Source of the DNA: Vicinamibacterales bacterium | GTDB taxonomy: Bacteria > Acidobacteriota > Vicinamibacteria > Vicinamibacterales > 2-12-FULL-66-21 | NCBI GenBank assembly: GCA_036258055.1 | Contig: DATAEK010000013.1 | Location: 1 to 41,564, forward strand | DNA: 41,564 bases | Direction: 5' to 3' | Shown: piece by piece, positions 2,216-41,414 of the stretch | Layout of the letters: each line of letters starts with the position of its first letter | How positions within the stretch are numbered: position 1 is the stretch's first letter | The notes under the pieces: generated by a model | Database searches by the model: none | Told to the model about the DNA's origin: nothing | The model's input: the letters and a program-made list of their open reading frames with translations, nothing else | Made by a program: the position numbers and the translations under genes

Positions 2216-2679
2216 CAGTGGGCTCCTTCGGGCTCGAGAAAGATCATCAGACGATCCACGCGTACGACGCGGCAGCGCTGTCCGCGCGTGATGGTCACAG
2301 CCGCGTTGTTGCGGGCGGACCAGACGGTGCCGCGCAGCTCCGCGCGGCCGACTTCACCAGCGGGAATGTCGTCGATCGGCACCGCAGTGTCGTTGAGCAG
2401 CGAATCGACGTCGGGCGCCGGCGTATCGAGCTTCATCCATCGCAGCAGCGGATTCCTGAAGAGGAGCAGCGATCCAATCGACAGCACCGCGAAGAGCAAC
2501 AGCTGCACCCATGCTGGGCCGGCGAGATTGACGAGCCGCAGGAGGCCGATCGTGATCGCGGCCACGCCGAAAAAAATGACGTAAAAGCCGCCCGCCGACG
2601 CCAGTTCGAGCGTGATCAGGATGAGCCCGAGCGCCAGCCACTGCCACCAGTGCAGGATCATGAGGGGAGGCGGCGCCAT
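2215..2679 (-). CDS. NfeD-family membrane protein (stomatin operon partner)
   Basis: 154 aa with 3 N-terminal TM helices and a C-terminal OB-like beta domain (GEVGRAELRGTVWSARN...). Classic nfeD-stomatin gene pair with a 1-nt overlap. Confidence 0.8.
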   Translation of the reverse strand: MAPPPLMILHWWQWLALGLILITLELASAGGFYVIFFGVAAITIGLLRLVNLAGPAWVQLLLFAVLSIGSLLLFRNPLLRWMKLDTPAPDVDSLLNDTAVPIDDIPAGEVGRAELRGTVWSARNNAAVTITRGQRCRVVRVDRLMIFLEPEGAH

Positions 2680-2728
2680 TGTAGCCCAAGCGCCCGCGGC
2701 TGCAGGACCAGAGTCACGTCGCGTCCGG

Positions 2729-2748
2729 CTTCAGCCGGACCCGCGGTC
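2729..2748. repeat. Short palindromic hairpin element GTCCGGC-TTCA-GCCGGAC, copy 1 of 3 related copies
   Basis: Perfect 7-bp stem with a 4-nt loop read directly from the sequence. A ~35-bp related sequence recurs at 29195-29232 and a similar hairpin at 30644-30663, all at 3' ends of genes. Confidence 0.5.
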
Positions 2749-2761
2749 CGCATGAAGGACG

Positions 2762-3412
2762 CTACTTACCCACTTCCACTCCCACCGGGCAGCTCACGCC
2801 CGTTCCACCAAGGCCGCAGTAGCCGTCCGGGTTCTTCGCCAGGTACTGCTGGTGGTAGTCCTCGGCGTAGTAGAACTCCGGCGCGGGAAGGATCTCAGTC
2901 GTGATCTTGCCGTAGCCGCGCCTGGACAGCTGTTCCTGGAAAACTTCGCGCGTTCGTTCCGCCGCCGCGCGCTGTTCGTCGTCGAAGTAGTAAATCCCCG
3001 AACGATACTGCGTGCCGAAATCGTTGCCCTGCCGCATGCCCTGCGTTGGATCGTGGTTTTCCCAGAACGTCTTCAGCAGAGAGTCGTAGGAAATCTTCGC
3101 GGGGTCGTAGACGACGAGCACGACCTCGTTGTGGCCGGTCATGCCCGTGCATACTTCGCGATACGTCGGGTTGGGCGTGAACCCCGCAGCGTAGCCGACC
3201 GCGGTCGTGAATACGCCAGGGAGCCCCCAGAACATTTTCTCTGCGCCCCAGAAACAGCCCATGCCGAAGATCGCCTGCTTCAGCCCGGCGCTGAACGGCC
3301 CTTCGAGCGGGGCGCCGTTGACGTAGTGCTGTGCCGGCACTTCCATACGCTCGGCGCGGCCCGGCAGAGCCTGATCCCTCACGGGCATCTTCATCTTCTT
3401 GTCGAGAAACAC
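2762..3412 (-). CDS. msrA: Peptide-methionine (S)-S-oxide reductase MsrA
   Basis: GCFWG active-site motif, plus the conserved FWENHDPTQ and [10 protein letters not shown] blocks. A GTG start at 3412 is preceded by a strong SD (AAGGGAGG, 6-nt spacer); the internal ATGs lack an SD. Confidence 0.9.
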
Positions 3413-3430
3413 ACTCGGCCTCCCTTCTTA

Positions 3431-3538
3431 TTGAGGATTGATGAGTGCTGATTGAGGATCGCTGGTTGTGGATTTCTGAATTGGGGATCCCAACAATCCA
3501 CAACCAGCGATCTTCAATCAGCCTTCATCAATCCTCAA
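3431..3538. repeat. Large near-perfect palindrome: 44-bp arms (41/44 matching) around a 20-bp central loop that is itself quasi-palindromic (TTGGGGATCCCAA)
   Basis: Left arm 3431-3474 is the reverse complement of right arm 3495-3538 with 3 mismatches. The region is conspicuously AT-richer than its surroundings. It lies between the stop of the GT-C gene and the start of msrA. Confidence 0.7.
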
Positions 3539-3547
3539 TCGACACCC

Positions 3548-5176
3548 TTATCGTCCCGTCGGGACGGGCAGGTCGTCAACGATCTTCAGCACCGCCGCCG
3601 ACAATGCGTCGCGGCTCCTGACCTGGAGCAGCACGGGCACGAGACTCCTGAGCGCCGGGTATTCACGGTCGGTGATTCGCGAGAGCGCGCCAGTGTCTCC
3701 ATCCCATCGCAAGACAATCACCGGCGCTCCTGTGTGCTGATCCTGCCATGTCTGCAGGATTCGGCGGGTATCGTCAACCCACTGATTGCGGCAGCAGTGG
3801 AGCAGCCACGGGGAAATCAGGAATACACGCGTGGTCAGATCGACCCTGGTGTAAGGCGGCTTCAGTGGAAACGGCATGGCCCATTCCCAGCTCAGCTTCG
3901 GTGCTCCGATGACGATCAGGCTCCCGGGCGGCGCCGACAGCGCCTCCGCACGAGTGTCGAGCAGCACCTTGCGCGACACTTTCGCCAGGGTGTTCCAGGT
4001 CGTGACCTCTTTGTAGAGCCCGGTGCTGTAGAAGATCACGACGGCTGACGCGACGGCAAGCACCGCCCGGCGCCGCGCCACGCCGATCGCGCCGGTCCAG
4101 GCCAGATCGAATACGACGCCGAGGACGATTGCCCACCCCGCGGACGCGAGATACACGTGGCGAGGCGATTCGTAACCGGCGACGGCAATCGGCAGCACGC
4201 CGATCGCCCACCACAAGGGACCGAAGAACAGCACCACGCGGGCGAGACGCCGCCGCTCGCCGGCGATGCGATGCCTCGCGAGCCACCAACCCAGCACGGT
4301 CGTCGCTGCGAGCACGCCCCAGGTGACCACCGCGCCGGCGTTCACGTTTCCGGTAACGACGCGCGCGAGGTGGCGCTCGATGAGCACGAAGAAGTAGTGC
4401 AGGCCCTCCGAGTTGAGTTGTCCTTCACGCGCCACCTGGCCGAAAAGCACGTAGCGGAGCCACATGTACGCCATCGTCATCAGCACGAACGGCACGTAGG
4501 GCCTGACCCAGCTCCAGGTCGGGCGCGCCGGCCGATTCGACAGCAGCACATCCCACGCCACAAGCGTCGCAACCATCGTGATCGTCGTTTGCTTGGTGAA
4601 AAGCGCGGCGAAAAACAGCGCGAGCGATCCAACGTACAACCGTGAATCGGTGGCGCCCTTCTCGCGCCACCTCGCGTATGCGACGAACGCGGCGATGTAG
4701 AACAGCGCCGGCATCGAGTCGACACGTCCCGTGATCCAGGCGACCGTCTCCGCCTGAACCGGCAACAGGACGAACACGGTCGCAGCAAAAACCGACGACG
4801 TGAGGCTGAGGCCGGCCAGCCATCGCGCCATCAGCAGCACGAGCAGCCCGGTGGCCGCGTGCAGCGCGACGTTCATGGCGTGGTGCAGGAACGGAGACGC
4901 CGCGCCGCCAAGTGCGGTGATCTGGTACGACACGGCCATGAACGGGCGCACCTCGTCGGCGATGTCGCCCCAGATCCGATCCGTCCACGGTGTGTAGAAC
5001 CAGCGCGGAAAATACGACGCCGGCTTGGACGCCAGGAGTTCGACGACCCCAAAGTCGTCGCGGACGAAGTAGTTGTTGAGCGTCGACGCGTACGGCAGGA
5101 GCGCCGCCAGGCAGACGACGAGCGCGGCCGCGAGCACTCGGCTGGACAGCGCGCCGCGGCGATCCATCGTGGTCAT
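3548..5176 (-). CDS. GT-C fold membrane glycosyltransferase (GT39/ArnT/PMT-like), polyprenyl-phosphate-sugar dependent
   Basis: About 543 aa from the ATG at 5176 (MTTMDRR). The longer ORF drawn to 5548 is rejected as read-through into the upstream gene. Many TM helices, an FVRDDFG acidic motif in the first loop, and a C-terminal soluble domain. Start overlaps the GT2 stop (ATGA). Confidence 0.5.
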   Translation of the reverse strand: MTTMDRRGALSSRVLAAALVVCLAALLPYASTLNNYFVRDDFGVVELLASKPASYFPRWFYTPWTDRIWGDIADEVRPFMAVSYQITALGGAASPFLHHAMNVALHAATGLLVLLMARWLAGLSLTSSVFAATVFVLLPVQAETVAWITGRVDSMPALFYIAAFVAYARWREKGATDSRLYVGSLALFFAALFTKQTTITMVATLVAWDVLLSNRPARPTWSWVRPYVPFVLMTMAYMWLRYVLFGQVAREGQLNSEGLHYFFVLIERHLARVVTGNVNAGAVVTWGVLAATTVLGWWLARHRIAGERRRLARVVLFFGPLWWAIGVLPIAVAGYESPRHVYLASAGWAIVLGVVFDLAWTGAIGVARRRAVLAVASAVVIFYSTGLYKEVTTWNTLAKVSRKVLLDTRAEALSAPPGSLIVIGAPKLSWEWAMPFPLKPPYTRVDLTTRVFLISPWLLHCCRNQWVDDTRRILQTWQDQHTGAPVIVLRWDGDTGALSRITDREYPALRSLVPVLLQVRSRDALSAAVLKIVDDLPVPTGR

Positions 5177-5874
5177 CCGAGGCGATACCTGAGGATGAGG
5201 GCGATCATCCTGAACCCGGTCGTCAACGTGCCCTTCAGGCTGCCGGTAATCTTCGACTCGCCGACGCGACCACGATAATTGACCGGCACCTCGATGATCT
5301 TCAGCTTTCGACGGAGGCCGAGGATCACCATCTCGGGCAGGAAATGCGAGCCGCCGACGGTGAGATCGCTGCGGATTCTTTCGAGCGGCGCGCGATGGAC
5401 CAGCCGCATCGTGCAGCCGCAATCGCTCAATGAGGGCCCGCCGTACAGAAACTGGATCAGCTTCGCGACCGTCCAGTTGCCAATCCGCAGGAACCACCCC
5501 ATGTTCGCCTGATCCCAGACGAGCTCGCGCGTGGTTCGCGTTCCGCACACCATGTCGAAGTCATCCGCGTAGGCCAGCAGCTTGTGGACGTCCCGTCCGA
5601 GGAACGTGCCGTCCGGTTCCGCCATGATGATGATGTCACCCGACGCATCCTGCAGGCCGCGGCGCAGCGCGTGCCCGTAGCCCTGCTGTGACTCGGACAC
5701 GACTCGCGCTGCCGTGGCCCGGGCTTCGACGGCGGTTCCGTCGTGCGAATTGTTGTCCACCACGAGCACCTCGTCCACGACGCCCGCGGCAAGAAAGTCC
5801 TCGACGGCGGCGCGGATGTACTTCTCCTCGTTGTAGGCGGGCAACACCACGCTGACGGTCTTCGAACCGTACAT
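5173..5874 (-). CDS. GT2 family glycosyltransferase (polyprenol-phosphate sugar synthase, DPM1/ArnC-like)
   Basis: 233 aa from the ATG at 5874. Motifs VSVVLPAYNEE, DNNSHDGT and EPDGT (DXD-like) with a C-terminal amphipathic/TM tail. The 421-aa ORF extending to 6438 overlaps the methyltransferase and is rejected. Confidence 0.8.
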   Translation of the reverse strand: MYGSKTVSVVLPAYNEEKYIRAAVEDFLAAGVVDEVLVVDNNSHDGTAVEARATAARVVSESQQGYGHALRRGLQDASGDIIIMAEPDGTFLGRDVHKLLAYADDFDMVCGTRTTRELVWDQANMGWFLRIGNWTVAKLIQFLYGGPSLSDCGCTMRLVHRAPLERIRSDLTVGGSHFLPEMVILGLRRKLKIIEVPVNYRGRVGESKITGSLKGTLTTGFRMIALILRYRLG

Positions 5875-15681: not shown

Positions 15682-16545
15682 TTACTGCAAGGTCTCGGAG
15701 AGGAACTCGTCGAGGAGGCGTCCGGCGACCTCACCTCGGTAGTGTGCGGTCGATCGCATGTCGTCGATCGGCGCGATATCGGAGGCGAGCGCCGCTCGGA
15801 CCGCCGGGACCGAGACGTCGCCAAGTGCGCGGCCTTCGAGTGCGCGCTCGGCATTCCGGGCGCGAATGACGGCGGGCGCGACGCTTCCAAAAGCGAGGCG
15901 GATCTGATGGATCGTGCCGTCGGTGACGTCGGCTGCGGCAGCGAAACAGACCTTCGAAATCGCCTGTGCGCGCCTGGTGCCCACTTTGCGGTAGGACTCG
16001 ATCCAGTTGCTCCGGCCACGCGGCAGCCGCACGGCGCGAATCAGCTCAGTCGGACCGAGATCCATCTTCTTGTATCCGGTGTGGAACCGATCGTAGGGAA
16101 CAGCCCGGGAGCCCGATGACGAAATCAGCTCGATCTCGGCGTCGTAGGCGAGGAGTGCGGGCGGCGTGTCGGCAGCGGGTGACGCATTCGCGATGTTGCC
16201 GCCGATCGTGCCCCGATTCTGGGTCGCGATCCCGCCTGTTTCGCGCGCGGCTTCGCAAAGGAGCGGAAACTCCGTCTGCAAGAGCGGATGCCGGAGCACC
16301 TCGGAGTAAGTGGTCAGCGCACCGACGGTGACGGTGTTGGCGTCAACGGTGATGCCGCGAAGATCGTCGAGATGCCACAGGCTGATGAACCGCTTGTCGG
16401 TCAGCTTCCCCGCTTCCAGGAGCACCATCAGATCGGTGCCGCCGGCGAACGGATGCCACACGCCGGGCTCGCGTGCGAGCAGCTCGAGTACCCCGGCGAG
16501 CGTCGCCGGGGCACGTAGGTCGAACGCGGGGAGGTACGCTCTCAT
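15682..16545 (-). CDS. Xanthine dehydrogenase-family FAD-binding subunit (CoxM/XdhB-like)
   Basis: FAD-binding PCMH motifs (PFAGGTDLMV, GTIGGNIANASPAAD) and the CO dehydrogenase flavoprotein C-terminal pattern. Confidence 0.8.
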   Translation of the reverse strand: MRAYLPAFDLRAPATLAGVLELLAREPGVWHPFAGGTDLMVLLEAGKLTDKRFISLWHLDDLRGITVDANTVTVGALTTYSEVLRHPLLQTEFPLLCEAARETGGIATQNRGTIGGNIANASPAADTPPALLAYDAEIELISSSGSRAVPYDRFHTGYKKMDLGPTELIRAVRLPRGRSNWIESYRKVGTRRAQAISKVCFAAAADVTDGTIHQIRLAFGSVAPAVIRARNAERALEGRALGDVSVPAVRAALASDIAPIDDMRSTAHYRGEVAGRLLDEFLSETLQ

Positions 16546-16547
16546 TT

Positions 16548-16748
16548 TTCAGTTTGCCGCGGGGCCCCACCCCCGCATCCTCAGTGCGCGTGTGGCCCCA
16601 CCCCCACGCGCGGCGCTCGGCGACTGCGCGCCTCGCGCCGGCCGCAGGCGCTCTGCCAGCGCTCGTCCTTCAGCGCGTCTGGGGTCCCACCCCCAGCTCG
16701 CGCGTTCGCGCTCACTGCGGCTCAAAGCTGTTTGCTCGCGCCGCGGGG
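16548..16748. repeat. ~200-bp non-coding repeat element, copy A, containing three GGGGYCCCACCCCC boxes
   Basis: About 90% identical to the reverse complement of 35972-36182 when aligned by eye (for example tcagtttgccgcggggccccacccccgcatcctcagtgcgcgt and ggctcaaagctgtttgctcgcgccgc). Lies between the S and M subunit genes of the molybdo-enzyme operon. Confidence 0.8.
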
Positions 16749-16763
16749 TTGGGGCGACGGCGT

Positions 16764-17246
16764 TCATTTGACAGGCAATTCGACCGCCGCCTGCAGGACG
16801 GCGTCGAAGATCCGCATGTAGCCCGTGCATCGGCACAGGTTGCCCGCGAGCGCGACCCTGACATCCGCCTCGGTTGGTTCGGGGTTGTTCGCGAGCAGGT
16901 TCACCGCGGCGAGCACCATGCCGGGGGTGCAGATGCCGCACTGAGCGCCGCCGTGCGCGATGAACGACTGCTGGACCGCGTGCAGCACGTCGCCGCCGGC
17001 CACACCTTCGATCGTCGTGATCGCGACGCCCTGCGCGTGCAGGAGCGGCACGAGACAACTGTTGACGAGCTGTCCGTCGATCAGCACCGAACAGGCGCCG
17101 CATTCACCTTCGCCGCAGCCTTCTTTTGTGCCGGTGAGGCGGAGGTCGTGACGAAGCACGTCGAGAAGGCGGGCCATCGGGTGCCCTTCGATCGTCGTGT
17201 CCGTGCCGTTGACGCGGCAGCGGATGGTGATCGTCGGGTCAGCCAT
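16764..17246 (-). CDS. (2Fe-2S)-binding small subunit of xanthine dehydrogenase-family enzyme (CoxS-like)
   Basis: Both [2Fe-2S] cysteine clusters are present (CGEGECGAC and CGICTPG...CRCTGY). The 8-nt start overlaps the end of the large subunit gene. Confidence 0.85.
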
Positions 17247-19461
17247 GCGCGGCCTCTGAGAGTGCCATCAGCGTTTCGGGTGTCAGCGGCAGCGTCGTTG
17301 GATTGAGTCCGGTGGCGTGCGCGACGGCGTTGAAGATCGCCGGCGCCGCGCCATCCATCGGCAGCTCGCCGATACCTTTCGCACCCGCAGGTCCGTACGG
17401 GTACGGCCGCTCCTCGAACGCCACACGAATCGGCGGGAGATCCATCGACGTGGGCATGATGTAGTTCGTCATCTGGCCGTTGATCATCCGCCCTTCGCGC
17501 CAGACGACCTGCTCGTACAGGGCCCAGCCGATCCCCTGCGCGACGCCCCCTTCGATCTGACCGATCGCCAGCACGGGGTTGATCACTTTGCCGACTTCCT
17601 GGACTGCGACGAAGTCATCCACCCGCGTCTCGAACGTGATCGCGTCGACGGTGACCTCCGCGACATACACCGCCCAGGCGTAGGTGCCGTAGGCATCTCC
17701 CTGGTACTTCTGATCGTCCCATCGACGCCCGGGCGGCGGCTGATAGCGAGCGGTCGCCTTGAGCGGCCCGACAGTCGCGATGTAGTCGCGGCACGCAGAC
17801 TGAAACTCGTCGCTCGAGTAGGCAGCACCGATGAGTCCCGCGTCGACGAGCGTGCGGCGGAGCCCGATCGCTGCTGTCTCGACGAGCTTGCCGACGACCA
17901 TGCAGGTCCGCGATGCGACTGTCGGTCCGCTGTTGGGCACGAGCGACGTATCGGGCTGGACGACGTCGATGGCGTCATGAGGGAGGGCGAGAGCGTCCCC
18001 GGCAATCTGCGCGAAGATGGTGTTGGTCCCCTGACCGATCTCCGTCGCCGAGGTCAGGACCCTGATGCGGCCGTCAGGCACCGCTTCCACCGCCACCACC
18101 GAGGCGAGGTGATCTTCACCCGATCCGGTGAAGCCAGCGCCGTGCATGAACGCCGCAAAGCCGATCCCGCGTTTGGATCGCGACCGTCGATTAGCCTCCG
18201 AGAATTGCTTCCGTTTGGCCGAGTAGCCGGACATCTCGAGAGCACGATCGAGCAGACCGGACATGTCCACGGGTTCGTCGATGACCTGTCCAACGGCGGT
18301 GGTCTGGCCGCGTTGAATGAAGTTGCGGCGGCGAAACTCTTCGGGTGTGAGTCCGACGGTCGCCGACACGCGATCCATTTGCCGCTCGAGCGCGAAGATG
18401 CTCTGCGGAGCGCCGAAGCCTCGGAACGCGCCATGCGGCGGCGCATTGGTGGCAACGGCGCGGCCGCGGATTCTGACGTTGGGGCAAGAGTACGGTCCCG
18501 CCGCGTGAATCGTTCCTCGGGAGAGGACGACCGGTGAGAGCGTGCAGTACGCGCCGCCGTCGATCACAAAGTCGATGTCCATCGCGAGGAGGCGCCCCTC
18601 CGCATCGACGGCCGTTCGATGCCGGGTCCGCGACGGATGGCGCTTCGTCGTCGCGACCATGTCCTCCCCGCGGTCGTAAATCAGCTTCACCGGCCGGTGC
18701 GCCTTCCACGCGAGCAGCGCCGCGTGACCGGCGATCACGGACGGGTATTCTTCCTTCCCACCGAACCCGCCGCCGGTTTCCGTCTGGACGATGCGGATCT
18801 TGTCTGCCGGAATGCCGAAGAGCACCGCCAGCGCCGTGTGGATGTAGTACGGGCACTGCATCGAGCCCCACACGGTGACGCCGTCGATCGGATCACCAGT
18901 GGCGATCATTCCATTCGGCTCGATGTAGAGCTGCTCCTGCGCACCCGTTTCGTACACGCCTTCCACGATGTGCGCCGCGGAGGCCATCGCCGTATCCACG
19001 TCGCCGCGCTGGACCAGATAGCGCTTGAACACGTTGTCGGCACCCCAGATCACATCACGCGCCGCGAGCGAATCATCGATCGTGAGCACGGGTGGCTCCG
19101 GATTGACGTCAATCGTGACGTGACGGCGCGCTTCCTCGAGCAGGAAGCGATCGGGATGCGCCAGCAGCACCACGGGTTCTTCGGGGTGATTGACCCGGCC
19201 GTCAGCGAGATACGGCTGATCGCGCTCGATGAGGGCGACGCAGTTGACGCCCGGGATGTCACCCGCAGTGACAATCGTGAACTCATCCCACGGAATGCCA
19301 GGCCCGTACTTGACGTCGCGGATCACGCCGCGCGCGACGGGGCTTCGAACCGTCGTGCCATACAACATCCCGGGCACGACCAGGTCGTCCACGTAACGCG
19401 CCTGACCCGTGACCTTGGCGCGTCCTTCACGGCGGTAGACGGGGGAACCAATGGAGGGCAT
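17239..19461 (-). CDS. Xanthine dehydrogenase-family molybdopterin-binding large subunit (aldehyde oxidase/XDH a/b hammerhead + MoCo domains); not a bona fide CO dehydrogenase
   Basis: 740 aa containing the GAFRGFGAPQ motif typical of XDH-family hydroxylases. Neither the AYXCSFR (form I) nor the AYRGAGR (form II) CODH active-site loop was found. Confidence 0.85.
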   Translation of the reverse strand: MPSIGSPVYRREGRAKVTGQARYVDDLVVPGMLYGTTVRSPVARGVIRDVKYGPGIPWDEFTIVTAGDIPGVNCVALIERDQPYLADGRVNHPEEPVVLLAHPDRFLLEEARRHVTIDVNPEPPVLTIDDSLAARDVIWGADNVFKRYLVQRGDVDTAMASAAHIVEGVYETGAQEQLYIEPNGMIATGDPIDGVTVWGSMQCPYYIHTALAVLFGIPADKIRIVQTETGGGFGGKEEYPSVIAGHAALLAWKAHRPVKLIYDRGEDMVATTKRHPSRTRHRTAVDAEGRLLAMDIDFVIDGGAYCTLSPVVLSRGTIHAAGPYSCPNVRIRGRAVATNAPPHGAFRGFGAPQSIFALERQMDRVSATVGLTPEEFRRRNFIQRGQTTAVGQVIDEPVDMSGLLDRALEMSGYSAKRKQFSEANRRSRSKRGIGFAAFMHGAGFTGSGEDHLASVVAVEAVPDGRIRVLTSATEIGQGTNTIFAQIAGDALALPHDAIDVVQPDTSLVPNSGPTVASRTCMVVGKLVETAAIGLRRTLVDAGLIGAAYSSDEFQSACRDYIATVGPLKATARYQPPPGRRWDDQKYQGDAYGTYAWAVYVAEVTVDAITFETRVDDFVAVQEVGKVINPVLAIGQIEGGVAQGIGWALYEQVVWREGRMINGQMTNYIMPTSMDLPPIRVAFEERPYPYGPAGAKGIGELPMDGAAPAIFNAVAHATGLNPTTLPLTPETLMALSEAAHG

Positions 19462-19483: not shown

Positions 19484-19562
19484 TCCGTGCCTGAGGTGCC
19501 TGGGTGCCTAAGGAGCCAGAGTGCCTCGGTGCGAAGGTGCCAAGGGCGCGAGGGTGCGCGCG
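19484..19562. repeat. Octamer-period tandem repeat tract (GGTGCNNN)n, copy 1
   Basis: gtgcctga/ggtgcctg/ggtgccta/aggagcca/gagtgcct/cggtgcga/aggtgcca/agggcgcg/agggtgcg. A second tract with the same unit lies at 41343-41408. It sits between the coxL-like start and the MEDS gene stop. Confidence 0.7.
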
Positions 19563-19563
19563 T

Positions 19564-20235
19564 TCAGATCTTGAGGCGCGCGTGGCGCAGCTCGGTAATC
19601 TTCCATTCAACCTTGTGCGGCTGCGCTGGTCTGCGCATGGCGATCCCGGGCGCTCTATAAAACGGATTCAACCGGTGATGTCCTTCGAGCAGAACGGATG
19701 AATGCGTCGTCAGTGCATGATCGAGCTGATGCGCGGGCACACGCCGGCGATCGTACTGGCACATCCCGGCGGCAGGAACCGACCGAAAGCGCTGATTCAG
19801 AAGTGCTTCGTACTCCACCAGCTGGGTTGATCCCGGGGGTCCCTCGACCAGCCACGACATGTCGCCACACGTGCGCAGGCCCAGGAATCCGCGATTCAAG
19901 GCCGATTCCACGGACTTGTTGAGGACACCGAGCACGCGGTCGGTATCAAAGCATCCATTGACCACGTACGTGTCGGCATGCGTCCTTTCGACCAGCGCCC
20001 CGTGACTGATCATTCGCTCGACGTCGATGCCGGCCGCGGTCAGAGCAGCGCGCAATTGTTCAAGCGCTGTCGGCGAGCGAGCACAGTAGACACATCGTTC
20101 GCCGCGACGCAATCCATCCGCCAGGTACTCGCTTGCCATGGCCCGCTGCTCTTCTTCGCTTTCGTACAACGCACAAACATGTTGATGCTGCCGGAAACGA
20201 TTCGACATCCCGCCATGCTGGGCGTGCGTCTCCAT
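19564..20235 (-). CDS. MEDS-domain protein (DcmR-like putative sensor domain)
   Basis: 223 aa. The N-terminal HVCALYESEEE block and overall pattern resemble the MEDS family as recalled. No DNA-binding or kinase domain is attached. Confidence 0.4.
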   Translation of the reverse strand: METHAQHGGMSNRFRQHQHVCALYESEEEQRAMASEYLADGLRRGERCVYCARSPTALEQLRAALTAAGIDVERMISHGALVERTHADTYVVNGCFDTDRVLGVLNKSVESALNRGFLGLRTCGDMSWLVEGPPGSTQLVEYEALLNQRFRSVPAAGMCQYDRRRVPAHQLDHALTTHSSVLLEGHHRLNPFYRAPGIAMRRPAQPHKVEWKITELRHARLKI

Positions 20236-20587: not shown

Positions 20588-21457
20588 CTATGAACCACCG
20601 CCGAACGTGTTGCAGGCGTTCACGTCGCCGCTCTCGAGGCCGCGACGGAACCAGGTGACACGCTGTTCGGAGGATCCGTGCGTGAATCGATCGGGAGCCA
20701 CGCGCCCGGAGGACATGCGCTGCAGGCGATCGTCGCCGATGGATGCCGCCGCGTTGAGGCCCTCCTCGACGTCGCCGCGCTCGAGCTCGACCTTGCCCTG
20801 CACCGCGCGGCCGGACGCGGCCGCGTAGTGACCCCAGACGCCGGCGAAGCAATCCGCTTGCAGCTCGAGACGAACTGAGAGCGCGTTCTGTTGATCGGGT
20901 CGCGCAGATTGCGCGCGACGTACCTGCTCTTCGACCCCCAGCAGTCGCTGCACGTGATGACCCAGCTCGTGCGCGAGCACGTATGCCTGAGCAAAGTCGC
21001 CTGGCGCGCCAAGCTTGCTCTTGAGCTCGTCGAAGAATCCAAGATCAAGGTAGATCCGTTGATCGCCCGGACAGTAGAACGGGCCGGTGGCCGATTGCGC
21101 GAAACCGCACGCCGACTGGATCGCGTCGCGGAAGAGCACCGCGTGCGTGTCCTGGTACCGCGATCCCAGGACCTGCCGCCACGTCGCCTGGGCGTCGGTG
21201 AGGACAGCGTCGACCATGTCGACCATCCGCTCTTCACCAGGTGTTGCCGTCACGTTGCCCGAGGTCCCGACGGATGCCGACGGCGGCATGCTGCCGCCGT
21301 CAGTGCCGAGAAGGCTGAGAAAATCCACGCCGGTCGCCCAGCTCAGGACCAGCACGACGAGGAGCGCACCGATGCCCAGGCCGCCGGCGCGCATGCCCAT
21401 CCCCGACTGTCCCCGCATGTCCTCGATGTTGCCGCGATCGCCAGGCGTCCATTTCAT
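20588..21457 (-). CDS. YpfJ-family neutral zinc metallopeptidase (membrane-anchored)
   Basis: ATG at 21457 preceded by a strong SD (GGAGGAGGAG). N-terminal MKWTPGDRGNIEDMRG, a TM helix, and an HELGHH zinc motif, with FYCP and LELQADCFAGVW blocks typical of YpfJ proteins. Confidence 0.75.
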   Translation of the reverse strand: MKWTPGDRGNIEDMRGQSGMGMRAGGLGIGALLVVLVLSWATGVDFLSLLGTDGGSMPPSASVGTSGNVTATPGEERMVDMVDAVLTDAQATWRQVLGSRYQDTHAVLFRDAIQSACGFAQSATGPFYCPGDQRIYLDLGFFDELKSKLGAPGDFAQAYVLAHELGHHVQRLLGVEEQVRRAQSARPDQQNALSVRLELQADCFAGVWGHYAAASGRAVQGKVELERGDVEEGLNAAASIGDDRLQRMSSGRVAPDRFTHGSSEQRVTWFRRGLESGDVNACNTFGGGS

Positions 21458-21689
21458 GGCTAGCTCCTCCTCCTGGACCGGGGGGACTTCGTCCCCCGGA
21501 CCCCCTTTCGGCATCGCTCGCGGGGCCCCGTCGCCCCGCTCCCGCCTCCGCTGCGCTACGGAGGCTCGCCGAAGTGCCTGCGGTGCGAAGGCGGCCGCTC
21601 CGGCGGGGCGCGCCTGTGGCGCGCCTTGCCCTCATGCGGCCCGGCCAAACGGTACACAATTCTCGTTCCGAGCCGCATGACGGGTCAAT

Positions 21690-26891: not shown

Positions 26892-29177
26892 GTGTCCACC
26901 TTCGTTCGTACTGCCCTTCTGCTCGCCGTCAGCCTCGTTACCGTCGCCTGGCAAGCGGTTCAACTCGTTGACCTGTCACAGCGCGCGCTTGGACGGATGG
27001 ATGGCGAGGTCACCGTGCCGGGCCTGCGAGGGGACGTGCGGGTCCTGCGCGATCGTTGGGGCATCCCGCATATCTACGCGGCCTCGGCGGACGATCTGTT
27101 CTTCGCGCAAGGGTATGTGGCCGCACAGGATCGCCTCTGGCAGATGGAGATCTGGCGTCGCACCGGCGAAGGGCGGCTCGCCGAGATTCTCGGGCCGCAA
27201 GCCGTCGGCCGCGATCGCGTGGCCCGCCTGCTCAAGTATCGCGGCCCGATGGACCAGACGGAGCTCGCGAGTTATCACCCCGAGGGCCGCCGGTTGTTGA
27301 CCGCGTTCATGAACGGCGTCAATGCCTTCATTTCGACGCACGCGGACAACCTGCCGGTTGAATTCCTGTTGACCGGCGTCAAGCCCCAGCCGTGGACCCT
27401 CGAAACGCTGACGCTTCGACAGGTCACCTTCGGCGATGCCACGAGCGAACTGCAGCTCGCGCGAAGTGTCGCGGCGCTTGGCGCGGAGGAAGCCAACCGG
27501 CGGCGCAACCCCGATCCCTGGGACGCACTGCAGGTGCCTGCCGGACTCGACGTGTCGGCAATCACCGAGGAAGTCGTCGCGGCGACACGCGCGGAAACCG
27601 GGCGACTCCCTGTTCCGGAGATTCTGCCGACGTATCGATCGCTCGCCGCGAGGGCCATCGATCAGCGTTCGTCCATGACAGAGCGCGCGACGGCCGACCC
27701 CGAGGCAGTCTTCGAGCCCGGCAGCAACAACTGGGTCGTCAGCGGATCCATGTCCACGACCGGGAAGCCCGTCGTTGCCAACGATCCGCACCGCGAGGTC
27801 ACGCTTCCGTCACTGCGCTACATCTTTCACCTCATCGCACCCGGATGGAATGTGATCGGCGCGTCCGAGCCGCCGTTTGTCGGCATCGCGGTCGGCCACA
27901 ACGATCGGGTGGCATGGGGGCTCACGATCGTCGGAACGGACCAGCACGACGTCTACGTCGAGGAGATCAATCCGGCCGATGCAAATCAGGTTCGATGGCG
28001 AGGCGGTTGGGAACCCTTACGCATCGTCCGCGAACAAATTGCGGTGAAGGGCCAGGCGCCCCAGAGTGTCGAGCTGAAGTTCAGCCGTCACGGTCCGATC
28101 TTCTACGAGGACCGGGCCCGGCACCGCGCCTACGCCTTGCGGTCAGCGCTGCTCGAGCCGGGAACAGGCGCATATCTCGCGGGGCTGCGCCTAAGCCAGG
28201 CTCGCGACTGCCGGCAGTTCCTCGACTCTGCGATGTACTGGAAGTCGCCGTCGGAGAACCTGATTTGCGGTGACGTAGATGGCAACATCTCGTGGCAGGC
28301 CTCAGCGCTGACGCCAACGCGCAAGGGATGGGTCGGCCGGCTGCCGGTCCCGGGCGGCGGTGACTTCGAGTGGCAGGGCTTCCGGCAGGATCTGCCGCGG
28401 GAGATCAACCCGGATCGCGGATTCATCGCCACGGCCAATCACAACATCCAGCCCAAGGGCTACGCGCCGCCGATCATGTTCAAGAACGCGGATGTGCGGT
28501 TCGAAAGGATCACGCGACTGTTGCAGTTGCTGACGCCGGGGCGCAAGTACTCGCTGGAGGATCATCAGCGGATGCAGCACGACGCCTTCTCTCTGCGCGC
28601 CGCGGCGGACCTGCCGCGCTTCAAAGGCTGGACGGCGTCGGATCCCGACGTCGAACGGGGGCGGGCGATGCTCGCGAACTGGGACGGCGTGTATCAGCGC
28701 GACAGTGCGGCGGCGGCGCTGTATGAAACGTGGCGCCAGGTTACCGGACGTCGCGCTACCGATGACACGGCGAGCACAACAGACGGCCAAGCGAGTCCAG
28801 AGGACAGCTTGAGCCAGGCGGTCACACGGTTGAGGGGTAGCCAGGGACGCGATTGGAGCGCGTGGCGTTGGGGACGCATGCACACGCGAACGTTCCCTCA
28901 TCCGTTCGTGCGCGCGTTCGATCTTCCCACCGTCGAGCGTGCGGGCGGCGCGGGAACCGTCGCCGCCGACGGTGCGACGTATCGCGAGATTCTCGACGTG
29001 TCGAACTGGGATAACTCGCTCGGCTCGAACGTTCCGGGCCAATCGGGGCAACCCGGGAGTCCGTACTACGGCAATCTCCTGCCACTCTGGACGGACAACA
29101 AGTACTTCCCGCTCGCATTCTCGAAAGCGGCGGTCGATGGAAACGCCGAGCATCGGCTCACGCTGAAGAGTCGGTAG
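26892..29177 (+). CDS. Penicillin acylase family protein (Ntn-hydrolase, S45; family includes AHL acylases)
   Basis: 761 aa with a signal peptide. The conserved N-terminal blocks RDRWGIPHIYA, DLFFAQGYVAAQDRLWQME and NGVNAF, plus the SNNW nucleophile region (GSNNWVVSG), are all present. The start is a GTG at 26892. Confidence 0.85.
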   Translation: MSTFVRTALLLAVSLVTVAWQAVQLVDLSQRALGRMDGEVTVPGLRGDVRVLRDRWGIPHIYAASADDLFFAQGYVAAQDRLWQMEIWRRTGEGRLAEILGPQAVGRDRVARLLKYRGPMDQTELASYHPEGRRLLTAFMNGVNAFISTHADNLPVEFLLTGVKPQPWTLETLTLRQVTFGDATSELQLARSVAALGAEEANRRRNPDPWDALQVPAGLDVSAITEEVVAATRAETGRLPVPEILPTYRSLAARAIDQRSSMTERATADPEAVFEPGSNNWVVSGSMSTTGKPVVANDPHREVTLPSLRYIFHLIAPGWNVIGASEPPFVGIAVGHNDRVAWGLTIVGTDQHDVYVEEINPADANQVRWRGGWEPLRIVREQIAVKGQAPQSVELKFSRHGPIFYEDRARHRAYALRSALLEPGTGAYLAGLRLSQARDCRQFLDSAMYWKSPSENLICGDVDGNISWQASALTPTRKGWVGRLPVPGGGDFEWQGFRQDLPREINPDRGFIATANHNIQPKGYAPPIMFKNADVRFERITRLLQLLTPGRKYSLEDHQRMQHDAFSLRAAADLPRFKGWTASDPDVERGRAMLANWDGVYQRDSAAAALYETWRQVTGRRATDDTASTTDGQASPEDSLSQAVTRLRGSQGRDWSAWRWGRMHTRTFPHPFVRAFDLPTVERAGGAGTVAADGATYREILDVSNWDNSLGSNVPGQSGQPGSPYYGNLLPLWTDNKYFPLAFSKAAVDGNAEHRLTLKSR

Positions 29178-29194
29178 GAAGTCGGCAGTCGCGG

Positions 29195-29232
29195 TCACGT
29201 AGCGTTCGGCTTCAGCCGGACCGCGCCTTTCG
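29195..29232. repeat. Copy 2 of the GTCACGTNGCGTYCGGCTTCAGCCGGACC repeat/hairpin element
   Basis: Shares gtcacgt.gcgt.cggcttcagccggacc with 2717-2753. Lies immediately 3' of the acylase gene. Confidence 0.5.
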
Positions 29233-29269
29233 GACCGGTTGTTGCTTCTTTCGGCGCAGGAGGCAACAC

Positions 29270-29689
29270 ATGCCGGAGCAAGAAACGTTGAGGCGGGCTC
29301 GACAGGACAAGCGTGAGGGAAAATCTCCGTCCACGCAGGCTGGTGAATTCGTCCACGAGGAGATCGAACACATCCGTGAGGGCAAGCACGGTGCGCGCTC
29401 GACGAAGCAGGCCATCGCGATCGGGTTGTCGAAGGCGCGGCGAGCGGGAGTCAAGCTCCCTCCACCGGCCAAGGGACAGTCCTCGGCGGCCACGAGAAGG
29501 CGAGCGGCACAGGATCTGCGCGCCGGGCACTCGGGATCTCACAAGACGTCGTCACGCCGATCGCGAGCGACCATGAAGGCGCTGAAACGTGAGGGACATG
29601 GCGCAGCGTCACACTCGGCGCTCAGCCGTCAGGCTCGCACCGCCGCGCGGAAGCGGAGCACCACTCGCCGATCGATGAAGAAGCGCTAG
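29270..29689 (+). CDS. Small conserved basic protein (resembles DUF6496-type proteins as recalled)
   Basis: 139 aa. SD AGGAGG 7 nt upstream of the ATG. A highly basic Arg/Lys-rich C-terminal half with a conserved-looking N-terminus (GEFVHEEIEHIREGKHGARSTKQAIAIGLSKARRAGV). Confidence 0.4.
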   Translation: MPEQETLRRARQDKREGKSPSTQAGEFVHEEIEHIREGKHGARSTKQAIAIGLSKARRAGVKLPPPAKGQSSAATRRRAAQDLRAGHSGSHKTSSRRSRATMKALKREGHGAASHSALSRQARTAARKRSTTRRSMKKR

Positions 29690-29717
29690 CGAAGACCAGT
29701 CCGCTTGCGCCTCGGCG

Positions 29718-30620
29718 ATGCGCACGCGCACAATGCGGCGCATGACATTCCCGCTGCGCTCGCACGCCACGATCGCCATCGCCCTTCTGCTGACAGTGGG
29801 CGTCGTTCAGCCAGGCTCACGGATACGGGCGCAGACGTCCGAGAAGCCGCCGGTCTACGACGCGTTTGCCATCCGCTTCGGCATCCTGCCGGCGTTAGCG
29901 GTGTCCGGGCTGGTGGCCGGCACCGAGGCCGGACGCAGGCTCGACATCCCGGTCATGGTCTGGCTGCTCAAGGGTTCGAACGGGCGCAACGTGCTCGTGG
30001 ACTCCGGCTTCTACCGGCAGAAATTCGTCGAACGGTGGAAGGTCCGCGACTTCAGATCGCCTGCCGATGCGGTCGCCGCCGCGGGAGTACGGCCGGACGA
30101 GATTACCGACATCATCATCAGCCATGCGCACTGGGACCACGTCGACGGCGCGGATCTCTTCCCAAAGGCCACGATCTGGATCCAGCGCGACGAGTATCAG
30201 TACTACACCGGAGAAGCGTGGCATGCGCGCAACACGCACGGCGGGATCGACGACGAGGATATGGTGGCGCTGCTGAAGATCAACACGCAGGGGCGGCTGC
30301 GCTTCGTGAACGGCGACGATCAGGAACCGATTCCCGGCATCCGCTGCTACACGGGCGGCCGTCACACGTTTGCGTCGCAGTATGCGTCGGTGAAGCTGGC
30401 GGCGGGAACCGCGGTGTTCACGAGCGACAACGTCTACCTGTACGAGAACTTAGAGAAGCACGTGCCGATTGCCCAAACGTTCGACGCGGCGAGCAACCTG
30501 AAAGCCCAGGATCGGATCAGGTCGCTCGCCACGCAGCCCGCGCTCATCGTGCCCGGCCACGATCCAGCGGTGTTCGAACGGTTCACCAGGGTCGCGGACG
30601 GGATCGTGCACATCCCGTAG
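29718..30620 (+). CDS. Secreted MBL-fold metallo-hydrolase (N-acyl-homoserine-lactonase-like)
   Basis: Signal peptide. HAHWDH (HxHxDH) zinc motif plus downstream His/Asp (CYTGGRHTF, VPGHD). Size and motif spacing resemble AiiA/AidC-type lactonases. The exact start is uncertain (ATGs at 29718, 29733 and 29742). Confidence 0.7.
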   Translation: MRTRTMRRMTFPLRSHATIAIALLLTVGVVQPGSRIRAQTSEKPPVYDAFAIRFGILPALAVSGLVAGTEAGRRLDIPVMVWLLKGSNGRNVLVDSGFYRQKFVERWKVRDFRSPADAVAAAGVRPDEITDIIISHAHWDHVDGADLFPKATIWIQRDEYQYYTGEAWHARNTHGGIDDEDMVALLKINTQGRLRFVNGDDQEPIPGIRCYTGGRHTFASQYASVKLAAGTAVFTSDNVYLYENLEKHVPIAQTFDAASNLKAQDRIRSLATQPALIVPGHDPAVFERFTRVADGIVHIP

Positions 30621-30643
30621 AGTCTGCCGTCAGGCGGACCTAC

Positions 30644-34054: not shown

Positions 34055-35950
34055 ATGACCCATTCGATCTCCGTCGGCATATTCAGCGTGGCCGCCGCGT
34101 GCGCATTCGCGGTGGTGCTGTCGGCAACGATCCAGCAGGAGCGCGATCGGGCCAAGATCCCGGACAAGTACAAATGGGATCTCACCAAGATCTATCCGAC
34201 GGACGACGCGTGGCGGCAGGCGAAGGAGAAGATCAAGACCGAGATTCCGAAGGTGCGCGAGTTCAAGGGCACGCTTGGCACCTCGGCGGCGCGTCTGGCC
34301 GACGCCCTCGACCTCGGCAACGAGCTGTCGAAAGAGCTCTCGCGGGCTTACGTCTACGCGAGCATGACGTCCGATCAGGACACGCGCGTCAGCACGTATC
34401 GGGGCATGCAGCAGGAGATGATCCAGATTGCCGCCTCACTCGGGGCCGAGACGGCGTTCCTCGAGCCTGAAGTCCTGAAAATCGAACCGGCGGTCATCGA
34501 CCGATTCATCGCGCAGGAGCCGCGCCTCAAGGTTTACACGGTCTACCTCAAGGACATCCAGCGCCGGCGTCCGCACACCCTCAGCGACGCAGAAGAGAAG
34601 CTGCTGGCGAGTTCTGCGGTGATGGCGAGCGGCCCGTCGAACATCTACGGCATCTTCTCCGACGCCGATTTTCCGTATCCGTCCGTGACGCTCAGCGACG
34701 GCAAGACGGCGAAACTCGACAGCGCGGCATTCAGCGTTCTTCGCGGCGTCCCGAATCGTGACGATCGTCAGAAGGTGATGTCGACGTTCTTCAACACGCT
34801 CGGCGCGTACGCGGGGACATTCGGCGCCACGATGAACGCGCAGGTGCAGTCCGACGTGTTCTACGCCCACGCGCGCAAGTACGGCAGCGCGCTCGAGTCT
34901 TCACTCGACGGCGCCAACATCCCGACCACCGTCTACATGCACCTCATCGACGGCGTGAACCGGAATCTGCCGGCGTTCCATCGGTATCTGAAGCTGCGGC
35001 AGTCGATGATGAAACTGCCGGAGCTGCACTACTACGATCTCTATGCGCCGCTCGTGAGCTCGGTGAACCTGGCGTATTCCGCTGAGGACGCCGAGAAACA
35101 CGTCATGACGGCACTGGCGCCGCTCGGTCCCGACTACGCGGCCGCAGCCAAGCGCGCCTTCTCGGAGCGCTGGATCGATTTCTACCCGAACGACGGCAAG
35201 CGCTCCGGCGCCTACTCGAATGGCGGCGCCTACGACGTCCATCCGTTCATGCTGCTGAACTACAACGGCAAGTACACTGACGTCAGCACCGTGGCGCACG
35301 AGCTCGGCCACACGATGCACAGCTACTACTCGAACAAGACGCAGCCGTACGCGACCGCGAACTACCCGATCTTCGTGGCCGAAGTGGCGTCGACCTTCAA
35401 CGAGGCGCTGCTCATCGATTACATGCTGAAGACGATTACCGACCCGGAAACCAAGCTGTCGCTCCTCGGCGACTACCTCGAAAGCATCAAGGGAACGGTG
35501 TTCCGCCAGACGCAGTTCGCGGAGTTCGAGCTGCGGGTTCACGAGATGGCGGAAAAGGGAGAGCCCATCACGGGCGAGACGCTCGACAAGCTGTACGCGG
35601 AGATCACCAGGAAGTACTACGGCCACGACAAGGGTGTCTGCACGGTCGACGACTACGTCGCGCACGAGTGGGCCTTCATCCCGCACTTCTACCGTAATTT
35701 CTACGTCTTCCAGTACGCGACCTCCTTCACCGCCTCGTCGGCGCTCTCCGAAAAGGTCAAGGCCGGCGATCCCGCGGCGACGAAGCGGTATCTGACATTT
35801 CTGTCATCCGGCGGCTCCAAGTACCCCATCGACCTCCTCAAGGACGCCGGCGTGGACATGACCACCGACGAGCCGCTTGAACTGACGGTCAAGAAGATGA
35901 ACCGCGTCATGGACGAAATGGAGAAGCTGATCGCGACACGAAAGAATTGA
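34055..35950 (+). CDS. pepF: Oligoendopeptidase F (M3B family), secreted
   Basis: 631 aa with a signal peptide and a HELGHTMH zinc-binding motif. Length and conserved blocks (YxxMQQE, FRQTQFAEFE) fit the M3B/PepF family. Confidence 0.85.
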   Translation: MTHSISVGIFSVAAACAFAVVLSATIQQERDRAKIPDKYKWDLTKIYPTDDAWRQAKEKIKTEIPKVREFKGTLGTSAARLADALDLGNELSKELSRAYVYASMTSDQDTRVSTYRGMQQEMIQIAASLGAETAFLEPEVLKIEPAVIDRFIAQEPRLKVYTVYLKDIQRRRPHTLSDAEEKLLASSAVMASGPSNIYGIFSDADFPYPSVTLSDGKTAKLDSAAFSVLRGVPNRDDRQKVMSTFFNTLGAYAGTFGATMNAQVQSDVFYAHARKYGSALESSLDGANIPTTVYMHLIDGVNRNLPAFHRYLKLRQSMMKLPELHYYDLYAPLVSSVNLAYSAEDAEKHVMTALAPLGPDYAAAAKRAFSERWIDFYPNDGKRSGAYSNGGAYDVHPFMLLNYNGKYTDVSTVAHELGHTMHSYYSNKTQPYATANYPIFVAEVASTFNEALLIDYMLKTITDPETKLSLLGDYLESIKGTVFRQTQFAEFELRVHEMAEKGEPITGETLDKLYAEITRKYYGHDKGVCTVDDYVAHEWAFIPHFYRNFYVFQYATSFTASSALSEKVKAGDPAATKRYLTFLSSGGSKYPIDLLKDAGVDMTTDEPLELTVKKMNRVMDEMEKLIATRKN

Positions 35951-35971
35951 GGCCGGGGGCCCCTCGTTTCT

Positions 35972-36182
35972 AGCCAGCGGCGCGAGCGAACAGCCTTGAG
36001 CCGCGGCGAGCGCGCAGGCGCGAGCTGCCCTGTTTGGGGGTGGGCCCCAGACAGTCTGAGAAGAAGAGCAGTCAAAGCGCCTGCGGCCGGCGCGAGGCTC
36101 GCAGTCGCCGGGCGCCGCGCGTGGGGGTGGGGCCCTACGCGCACTAAGGATGCGGGGGTGGGGCCCGCAGCAAACTGAGAAA
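35972..36182. repeat. ~200-bp non-coding repeat element, copy B (inverted relative to copy A at 16548-16748)
   Basis: The reverse complement aligns with copy A along its whole length (three GGGGGTGGGGCCC boxes: gtttgggggtgggcccc, gcgtgggggtggggccc, gcgggggtggggccc). Intergenic, between the pepF stop and the next gene. Confidence 0.8.
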
Positions 36183-41408: not shown

Positions 41409-41414
41409 AAAGGA

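Follow-up and report, generated by a model that had tools for sequence, protein, structure and literature searches.

An apparently undescribed family of mosaic extragenic hairpin repeats, with two copies in a Vicinamibacterales contig

Repetitive extragenic palindromic (REP) sequences and bacterial interspersed mosaic elements (BIMEs), as found in E. coli, Pseudomonas and Stenotrophomonas, are built on imperfect palindromes, G+C-rich and only 20-40 nucleotides long, in which one part is conserved and the stem varies while remaining complementary. In the described REP super-families one end of the palindrome typically carries the tetranucleotide GTAG or CGTC, and TIRYT genes with repeat families of their own are reported in Acidobacteria (Di Nocera et al. 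2013, PMC3733652). Here we describe a repeat present in two copies, A and B, in contig DATAEK010000013.1 of a Vicinamibacterales bacterium (assembly GCA_036258055.1; the whole stretch analysed, 41,564 nucleotides long, is called the window). Closest in kind are the REP/BIME systems and, for a sister sub-type of the window copies, the REPINs (REP doublets forming hairpins). The best explanation, to which we assign a probability of about 0.65, is that both copies are members of a large, REP/BIME-like family of extragenic hairpin repeats, mosaic in build and confined to one lineage, which would be mobilised in trans and is possibly co-opted as an intercistronic leader. Members of the family are gained and lost at intergenic sites, and the window holds two composites of one sub-type (type II), both in sense orientation and between co-directional genes.

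The family shares with REP/BIME a stem-loop in which one part is conserved and a complementary stem varies, probably also the high copy number, and the extragenic position, often between co-directional genes and presumably in the same transcript, as well as the occurrence as singles, tandems, inverted pairs and mosaics with other short motifs. It differs in what is conserved, namely the inner stem and loop (GGGG-CCCCAC-CCCC) instead of a terminal GTAG or CGTC tag. The window-type mosaics differ further in their length of about 220 nucleotides, in having three boxes of the same orientation, strongly co-oriented with transcription, and in an A-rich tail with an AUG; no REP-associated tyrosine transposase (RAYT) was found in the window or in the related contigs.

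Composite copies A and B

Copies A and B form one long inverted pair, whose arms at 16562-16663 and 36065-36166 are 91% complementary over 102 ungapped nucleotides in a repeat search of the window. The similarity extends over about 205 nucleotides in a gapped alignment with three indels of 1, 1 and 8 nucleotides, and nhmmer matches copy A to copy B at E = 1e-31; the two reverse-complementary regions of ~200 bp and ~90% identity given in the preliminary description of the window are therefore real. With up to two mismatches, the box GGGGYCCCACCCCC occurs only six times in the window, three times in A (+ strand) and three times in B (- strand), against a chance expectation of 0.89 +/- 0.94 per shuffle, and none of 100 shuffles reaches six, which confirms the three boxes per copy seen earlier. 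One C is lost in the third box of B (GGGGCCCACCCCC). A covariance model built from relatives (R1) recovers all six window boxes, five of them full-length and that of B hairpin 1 only in part. The short terminal direct repeats noticed before in copy A are likewise present (GTTTGC...CGCGGGG, 16551-16563 and 16730-16748).

The R1 search gives a tally of two full copies in 41.6 kb, possibly three. The additional candidate is a degenerate box GAGCGGGGCGACGGGGCCCCGCGAGCG at 21512-21547 (- strand), which abuts the ATG of the gene at 20588-21514 and has a borderline score (17.1 bits, E 0.059). Positions 21548-21600 contain GGCCGC...CGCAGGC, reminiscent of the central motif described below. The region at 21512-21547 may be a decayed third copy.

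On the contig the copies are inverted, as first reported, but relative to transcription they share one polarity, because the flanking genes lie on opposite strands at the two sites; the inverted arrangement exists because each copy follows the orientation of its flanking genes. In both copies the G-rich box GGGGGUGGGGCCCC is on the mRNA strand, named sense in the following. The repeat, real as it is, is not the single ~200-bp unit first supposed but a mosaic of hairpin modules. One module is a hairpin of ~30 nucleotides, with a variable complementary outer stem of 2-6 bp and then an invariant GGGG/CCCC inner stem closing a 6-nucleotide loop, which reads GUGGGG in sense and CCCCAC on the other strand. 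The window copies are composites of ~220 nucleotides consisting, in sense order, of a 5' part with little conservation, hairpin 3, a central GC palindrome (AGCGCCUGCGGCCGGCGCGAGGCGC; AGCGCCUGCGGCC...), hairpin 2, a 9-nucleotide linker, hairpin 1 and the A-rich tail GCAAACUGA(A/G)AAAUG (ending ...GCAAACUGARAAAUG).

Copy A lies in a molybdenum hydroxylase operon, and its spacer is also seen in four metagenome contigs (L001-L004). Its features and neighbours are:

16546-16763, - strand (mRNA sense): copy A, filling the whole 218-nucleotide spacer from the coxS-like stop (16764-16766) to the coxM-like start (16543-16545); from sequence, open reading frames (ORFs), Pfam and the A/B alignment
16672-16704 (core 16681-16694, GGGGTCCCACCCCC), - strand: hairpin 3; RNA fold -21.9 kcal/mol, z -4.4; R1 24.3 bits
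16624-16651, - strand: central GC-rich palindrome, sense AGCGCCUGCGGCCGGCGCGAGGCGC
16586-16611 (core 16592-16605), - strand: hairpin 2, stem GCGCGTG/CACGCGC; R1 34.0 bits, E 4e-6
16559-16576 (core 16561-16574), - strand: hairpin 1, the closest to the coxM start, GC + GGGG, loop, CCCC + GC; R1 25.4 bits, E 5e-4
16542-16556, - strand: A-rich tail and start codon, sense GCAAACUGAAAAAUGA; the same tail occurs in relatives
16743-16755, - strand: degenerate fourth box of opposite orientation, GCGGGGTTGGGGC, 92% complementary to 16564-16576
16764-16774, - strand: second flanking direct repeat TCATTTGACAG, overlapping the coxS stop, 9/11 identical to TCATTTTTCAG (16542-16552)
16764-17246, - strand: [2Fe-2S] subunit gene (coxS-like) of the molybdenum hydroxylase operon (Pfam)
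15682-16545, - strand: FAD subunit gene (coxM-like) of the same operon (Pfam)
17239-19461: large-subunit gene of the molybdenum hydroxylase

The core of hairpin 2 has a C-to-A change (CCAC), with an intact CCCC in the strain contig L003. Together with hairpin 1, the fourth box gives copy A inverted ends of 13 nucleotides (92%). The coxM AUG is supplied at the end of the tail, with an in-frame UGA 6 nucleotides upstream of it. The flanks TCATTTTTCAG and TCATTTGACAG, in sense CUGUCAAAUGA and CUGAAAAAUGA, are identical at 9 of 11 positions and suggestive of a target-site duplication, as a duplication of the ATGA junction would explain them; part of this repeat belongs to the tail consensus of the family, and the match is estimated as only borderline beyond chance. 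Integron attC sites were considered and rejected: the ends GGCAAAC / GTTTGCC and AACAAAC / GTTTGTT do not fit RYYYAAC / GTTRRRY, and the flanking genes are operon partners, not cassettes.

One frame is open across copy A for 72 codons, from an ATG overlapping the coxS stop (AAATGA) to a TGA 6 nucleotides before the coxM ATG, and the 9-nucleotide insertion in L004 preserves it. In the relative L245, moreover, the [2Fe-2S] ORF (1662-2267) is called 41 codons too long (201 instead of 160 amino acids) and continues across the repeat as far as TAATAA, directly ahead of the ATG of the following gene, because a deletion removed the coxS stop codon. The element might on these grounds be translated as a small ORF coupling two cistrons, as proposed for the mycobacterial MIRUs, but this is very unlikely: an open frame of 72 codons has a chance probability of ~0.3 at the G+C content of the window (own estimate), the predicted peptide has no Pfam match, and copy B has no equivalent frame. 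As the indels between A and B (1, 1 and 8 nucleotides) break every frame, neither copy is protein-coding, in agreement with the preliminary description, and a coding reading is rejected. The MIRUs of Mycobacterium tuberculosis, as Supply et al. are said to have described them in 1997, are intercistronic, gene-oriented tandem arrays of 46-101-bp units and not hairpin-based. The element resembles them in its intercistronic position, in following the orientation of the genes and in ends that meet or overlap stop and start codons (AAATGA at either end of A; UGA or UAAUAA directly preceding AUG), and differs in being hairpin-based and in a frame that is not conserved between copies (ORF in A, absent in B).

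Copy B occupies a spacer between two co-directional genes on the opposite strand:

35951-36184, + strand (mRNA sense): copy B, in a 315-nucleotide spacer, homologous to A at ~35972-36184
35952-35963, + strand: outer inverted repeat GCCGGGGGCCCC, with its partner GGGCACCCCGGC at 36191-36202; 83% over 12 nucleotides
36030-36054, + strand: hairpin 3, CUGUUUGGGG GUGGG CCCCAGACAG, its stem longer than in A through the 8-nucleotide insertion; R1 18.2 bits
36117-36142, + strand: hairpin 2, GCGCGUGGGGGUGGGGCCCUACGCGC; R1 38.1 bits, E 3e-7; also in the fold
36152-36184 (core 36154-36167), + strand: hairpin 1 and tail GCAAACUGAGAAAUG; from the box match and relatives
34055-35950, + strand: M3 oligopeptidase gene (pepF), upstream neighbour (Pfam)

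The downstream neighbour is a gene of a beta-lactamase-family serine hydrolase, for which JGI calls on identical contigs place the start at the equivalent of 36266. In the predicted fold the outer arms close the whole of copy B (z -3.3). No clear target-site duplication is found for copy B, and the empty spacers of the relatives L251 and L252 are too diverged to place the insertion junctions. The 30 nucleotides before the hydrolase start (ACTCGGTTACACTGTAGGCTCCTGACAGTC, 36236-36265) are conserved in these two repeat-free relatives (~2970-3000; 85-89% protein identity), while the remaining spacer is unalignable; ACTCGGTTACACTGTAGGCTCCTGACAGTC, with its -10-like hexamer TACACT, is probably the hydrolase gene's own promoter or leader.

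Relatives of the window copies and covariation of the hairpin

A tight two-box pattern scan of metagenome contigs yields at least 120 loci. In 87 of the 120 listed, the boxes have four or more additional complementary pairs; these loci comprise 215 boxes in ~406 kb, all intergenic. Every family contig comes from soil or rhizosphere, and tetranucleotide usage resembles that of the window (r ~0.90-0.96); similarity to named loci is not discriminating in this respect. The host of the family would be an uncultured soil bacterium of ~65% G+C, probably of the Vicinamibacterales (Acidobacteriota), with a taxonomy that rests on one 63%-identical homologue so labelled. In contigs of named genomes a loose pattern (CCCCACCCCCN{15,30}CCCCACCCCC) was searched, and all 120 matches listed are due to chance, mostly C-rich tracts of actinomycetes, none with the element. 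In viral contigs, three matches are all unrelated. Rfam has nothing in the window at gathering score, and only chance-level matches at E <=10 (both copies) and E <=1 (five element-rich loci). Literature searches for the box sequence and for REP work in Acidobacteria or Vicinamibacteria found no matching family either. The repeat family is apparently undescribed, as was suspected at the outset, and its initial classification as a REP/MITE-like dispersed element (MITE, miniature inverted-repeat transposable element) is supported by the relatives at 87 loci among the matches listed, by their unrelated gene contexts and by gain and loss at orthologous sites.

That A and B are a simple segmental duplication within the genome, or else intrinsic transcription terminators, would suit the presence of only two full copies in the 41.6-kb window and the G+C-rich hairpins. 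Both ideas are extremely improbable. The search of metagenome contigs yielded the opposite of two copies without relatives, as dozens of unrelated loci carry the family; the hairpins are followed by no U-run on either strand, the promoter and terminator scan detects nothing within the element, and copies are located within operons, among them coxSM and clusters of ribosomal-protein genes.

The commonest sub-type (type I) has two abutting hairpins with a box spacing of 13-14 nucleotides, one of at least two alternative modules upstream, and the tail ...AAACUAAUAAAUGCUGAYCCAG... downstream. It occurs singly and as inverted doublets ~190 nucleotides apart, like oversized REPINs; L150 has three inverted doublets, and up to nine boxes are found, in 13.7 kb. 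The type I profile finds both window copies, at E 2.5e-13 and 2.3e-10, through the module that they share with it (hairpin 2, hairpin 1, tail). The window copies themselves belong to type II, with a wider box spacing and the motif AGCGCCUGCGGC. Mosaicism, as in BIMEs, is evident from alternative 5' modules (a CCGGAGG hairpin, a hairpin with the loop GAGCGAAGCGAG, the palindrome AGCGCCTGCGGC) and optional tails, and the borders between modules repeatedly show the short motif (A)AUGCUGA. Like the REPIN-RAYT system (Bertels and Rainey 2011), type I inverted doublets could fold into one long hairpin and are intergenic whatever the gene orientation. Their arm, of ~190 nucleotides with two hairpins, greatly exceeds that of a REPIN in length, ~0.6 Mb of fragmentary contigs show no single-copy RAYT between repeats, and the window copies are not doublets, as their three boxes share one orientation and only a decayed fourth box in A is inverted.

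The outer stems vary from copy to copy (GCGT, TCGC, GGGC, CCAT and others), with no fixed tag. In 138 distinct boxes the outer stem covaries, with 90.6% of the cells paired against 73.6% in shuffles. Double-sided stem changes number 232, against 78 +/- 12 in shuffles, none of 500 reaching the observed value, and 30-91 when the partner column is slid. A 34-nucleotide hairpin alignment has ten pairs, six of them covarying. This strong covariation bears out the earlier suggestion that the G-run/C-run cores can form hairpins. The invariance of the core in the 138-box set proves nothing, because the core was fixed by the search pattern; in copies found via protein homology it is nearly intact yet decaying (GTCGGG and GGAGCC in L245, CCAC in the window). 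Non-Watson-Crick pairs are rare and symmetric (G-U 10 on the sense strand, 8 on the other), and the pairing constraint therefore looks equal on both strands; G-U strand asymmetry does not reveal which strand or molecule is selected.

The RNA folding proposed in the preliminary description gives a divided result. Single hairpins are predicted to be very stable, at -18 to -22 kcal/mol, but the fold of the whole copy A is no better than shuffles (z -1.8 and -0.4); neighbouring hairpins can mispair with each other, because their cores are identical. The four G-runs of two adjacent boxes (G5-U-G4 ... G5-U-G4) might also let the element change from hairpin to G-quadruplex and back.

A binding-site array, allowed for in the preliminary description, is a further conceivable function; its double-stranded sites, with the palindromic core GGGGCCCC, would be bound by a regulatory protein or one associated with the nucleoid. 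Each copy has three boxes with an invariant core, and it is established knowledge, treated at least in part in PMC2817692, that E. coli BIMEs bind IHF and gyrase. The strong covariation of the flanking bases makes such an array highly improbable, as a duplex site needs no complementarity within one strand, and so does a polarity of 28:2 relative to transcription (see below), unexpected for a symmetric duplex site.

Gain, loss and orientation at orthologous sites

Copy B is absent from the orthologous pepF/beta-lactamase-like spacers of L251 (73 nucleotides; hydrolase 89% identical in amino acids) and L252 (98 nucleotides; 85%), neither of which contains a box, compared with 315 nucleotides in the window. 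The copy would thus be young or easily lost. Site A is occupied in L245 (FAD subunit 84% identical) by a shorter version, in which the 5' half with hairpin 3 is deleted, and is empty in L246 (66% amino acid identity), where coxS and coxM overlap at ATGA without any spacer; copy A appears older than copy B. Together these sites show that the composites originate by insertion into spacers between genes. The window and L245 agree at ~91% of positions in hairpin 2, hairpin 1 and tail, against 60-64% of third codon positions in the flanking genes, a constraint that rests on this single pair of sequences. The comparison is free of ascertainment bias, because L245 was found by protein homology.

In the rplK-rplA spacer the family is present in five contigs, with repeats of another kind in two more; for the nusG-rplK spacer the pattern is the opposite. 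With the cores masked, the rplK-rplA elements are 66-89% identical, versus 50-82% at third positions, and their stems change in a compensatory way, e.g. GCATG/CATGC to CCATG/CATGG. A type II copy in L136 spans the interval from the rplA stop (TAG) to 27 nucleotides before rplJ.

The family shares with co-transcribed MITEs (Correia/NEMIS of Neisseria, ERIC/IRU of enterobacteria) the non-autonomous units of 100-250 bp, possibly also inverted ends and a target duplication, the RNA hairpins within mRNAs, and gain and loss between close relatives. It differs in fuzzy, modular ends and in internal tandem hairpins with one invariant core, and we know of no parent insertion sequence with the family's ends.

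Both window copies fill spacers between co-directional genes. Window-like singles, i.e. those without the type I tail, are sense in 28 cases and antisense in two (p 9e-7), counted on de-duplicated copies with gene calls in metagenome loci made by a crude GC3-based caller. No such bias is seen among doublet members (24 sense, 28 antisense) or type I singles (9:14). Of 18 window-like copies with a called downstream gene, nine have the start codon 10-29 nucleotides after the last hairpin, for example those before an asnB-like gene (starting MCGI...), rplK and an ABC ATPase gene. The 5' motif (central GC palindrome of the AGCGCCUGCGGCCGGCGCGAGGCGC type) begins at the stop codon of the upstream gene in three independent loci, L204, L136 and L191. 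The window genes mostly lack strong Shine-Dalgarno sequences.

Sense orientation, proximity to start codons, the invariant loop and covarying stems might equally be expected of a dedicated cis-regulatory RNA, a riboswitch or protein-binding leader, controlling the downstream gene. We consider this unlikely, since the downstream genes are unrelated (coxM, serine hydrolase, rplK, rplA, rplJ, asnB-like, ABC transporters), there is no match in Rfam and no G-U asymmetry, and the sister sub-type carries the same hairpin in both orientations and in inverted doublets.

Other repeats occur in the window and its relatives. Each spacer examined in the nusG-rplK-rplA-rplJ cluster (L136 at ~2600-4100, L133, L190, L221 and L222) has a hairpin repeat, of a family that differs by relative; intergenic repeats therefore turn over fast even within ribosomal-protein operons. 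In the window, a 45-nucleotide inverted repeat (3430-3539, 93% complementary) of TTGAGGAT-like 7-8-mers is located in the intergenic region between msrA (2762-3412) and the ORF at 3548-5548. A TTGAGGAT-like unit also fills the rplK-rplA spacer of L132, and it therefore represents a second repeat family of the lineage. Arrays of 8-mers (GGTGCCTG / GGTGCGAA / GGTGCCAA) are found at 19495-19565 and 41318-41413, one of them immediately before the point where the large-subunit gene of the molybdenum hydroxylase begins (19461), and analogous 7-mer arrays (CTTCCAG) form long hairpins in the nusG-rplK spacer of L133 and L221. A third repeat, GTCACGTCGCGTCCGGCTTCAGCCGGACC (hairpin CCGGC-TTCA-GCCGG), occurs at gene 3' ends at 2713-2741, 29194-29222 and 30612-30640; similar GGCC-TTCA-GGCC hairpins in the nusG-rplK spacer of L136 and these three may be terminator-like. 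The inverted repeat GAACAGGAGATGCAGAGATCAGGAGC / GCTCCTGATCTCCTGACCTCCTGCTC (81%) at 53-111 lies beside the stop codon, i.e. the 3' end, of the DUF4159 gene (110-871, - strand). Synteny differs between lineages as well: in 66% relatives (L253-L255, compared with 26892-30620) the penicillin amidase and metallo-beta-lactamase-fold genes adjoin the serine hydrolase, from which a block of ~5 kb (Band_7 gene, sigma-54 activator, M3 peptidase) separates them in the window.

Mobilisation, possible use to the host and significance

The elements would be moved in trans by an enzyme recognising the invariant hairpin core, for which the obvious candidate would be a RAYT/TnpA-type HUH/Y1 transposase acting on single strands, because REPs and IS200/IS605 ends are recognised in this way and tyrosine transposases with repeats of their own are reported in Acidobacteria (PMC3733652). 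Palindrome elements derived from IS200/IS605 and the terminal inverted repeats of acidobacterial TIRYTs resemble the family in sub-terminal hairpins, directly oriented on a single strand, and in a short conserved sequence whose spacing from the foot of the hairpin is constant (CATT / AATG at both ends). The reported TIRYT motif GGGGWSAS (PMC3733652) does not match the family core, and no Y1 transposase was found. In the ORFs of the loci there is no match to the HUH...Y motif, and no gene flanked by inverted elements resembles a transposase. Because no transposase was found, the mobilising mechanism is one that we purely infer.

Once inside an operon, the element would be co-transcribed, and its very stable hairpins may serve as insulators or hold up exonucleases. 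The tail, in which stop codons precede an A-rich stretch free of structure and an AUG, would leave the downstream cistron translated. Such a use to the host would explain both the orientation bias and the conservation at orthologous sites. Tentatively, the window-type element may go further and be a mobile intercistronic cassette, inserting at stop/start junctions of operons, those of ribosomal proteins included, where it would bring one or more stop codons, strong insulating hairpins and an A-rich start region independent of Shine-Dalgarno sequences, and would be selected as a working leader for the gene downstream.

The main alternative, possible though not favoured here, is that the elements are purely selfish MITE or REPIN relics that transpose and decay with no host function. 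The orientation bias would then reflect harmful antisense insertions in operons (e.g. C-rich loops loading Rho), and the similarity at orthologous sites would stem from gene conversion by other copies. Such an origin agrees with the inverted ends and flanking direct repeat of A, the outer inverted repeats of B, the commonest sub-type being orientation-neutral as singles and forming inverted doublets, the decay of cores in old copies (CCAC in the window; GTCGGG and GGAGCC in L245), the deletion of the 5' half in L245 and the symmetric Watson-Crick stems. Three things speak against it and for some use to the host: the identity of ~91% that site A retains in hairpin 2, hairpin 1 and tail, where neighbouring third codon positions have 60-64%; tails that repeatedly lie 10-30 nucleotides before real starts with the 5' motif at stop codons; and the sense-oriented presence within ribosomal-protein operons. 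Selfish origin and use to the host are not mutually exclusive.

Several observations weigh against the explanation preferred here, a REP/BIME-like family mobilised in trans and possibly co-opted as leader. No transposase is found beside the elements in ~0.6 Mb of fragmentary related contigs, nor in the window, and the GTAG/CGTC tag of the described REP super-families is absent from the family. A typical structured RNA suits the almost purely Watson-Crick stems less well than very strict pairing or selection at the DNA level would, and the predicted fold of the whole copy A does not exceed its shuffles. Other copies could have kept site A similar by gene conversion, in which case its conservation would not be due to function. 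The tail AUG of copy B (36182) belongs to the repeat, the hydrolase gene's own start being probably 36266, and the orientation counts depend on the crude gene calls mentioned above.

Vicinamibacteria-like Acidobacteria rank with the most abundant bacteria of soil, yet hardly any are in culture, and the non-coding part of their DNA is unexplored. A family of hairpin repeats, probably a very abundant one, is now evident in such bacteria. The R1 model and the core GGGGGTGGGGCCCC provide a ready marker for binning and strain typing, and annotators should be aware that the repeats inflate ORF calls, as with the 41 additional codons of the L245 coxS call. The family is a natural test case for REP-like DNA joining operon leaders, because one sub-type is orientation-neutral and forms doublets while its sister is strictly sense and abuts starts. 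If the functional reading is true, the window-type element would be a compact natural insulator and start region for high-G+C hosts.

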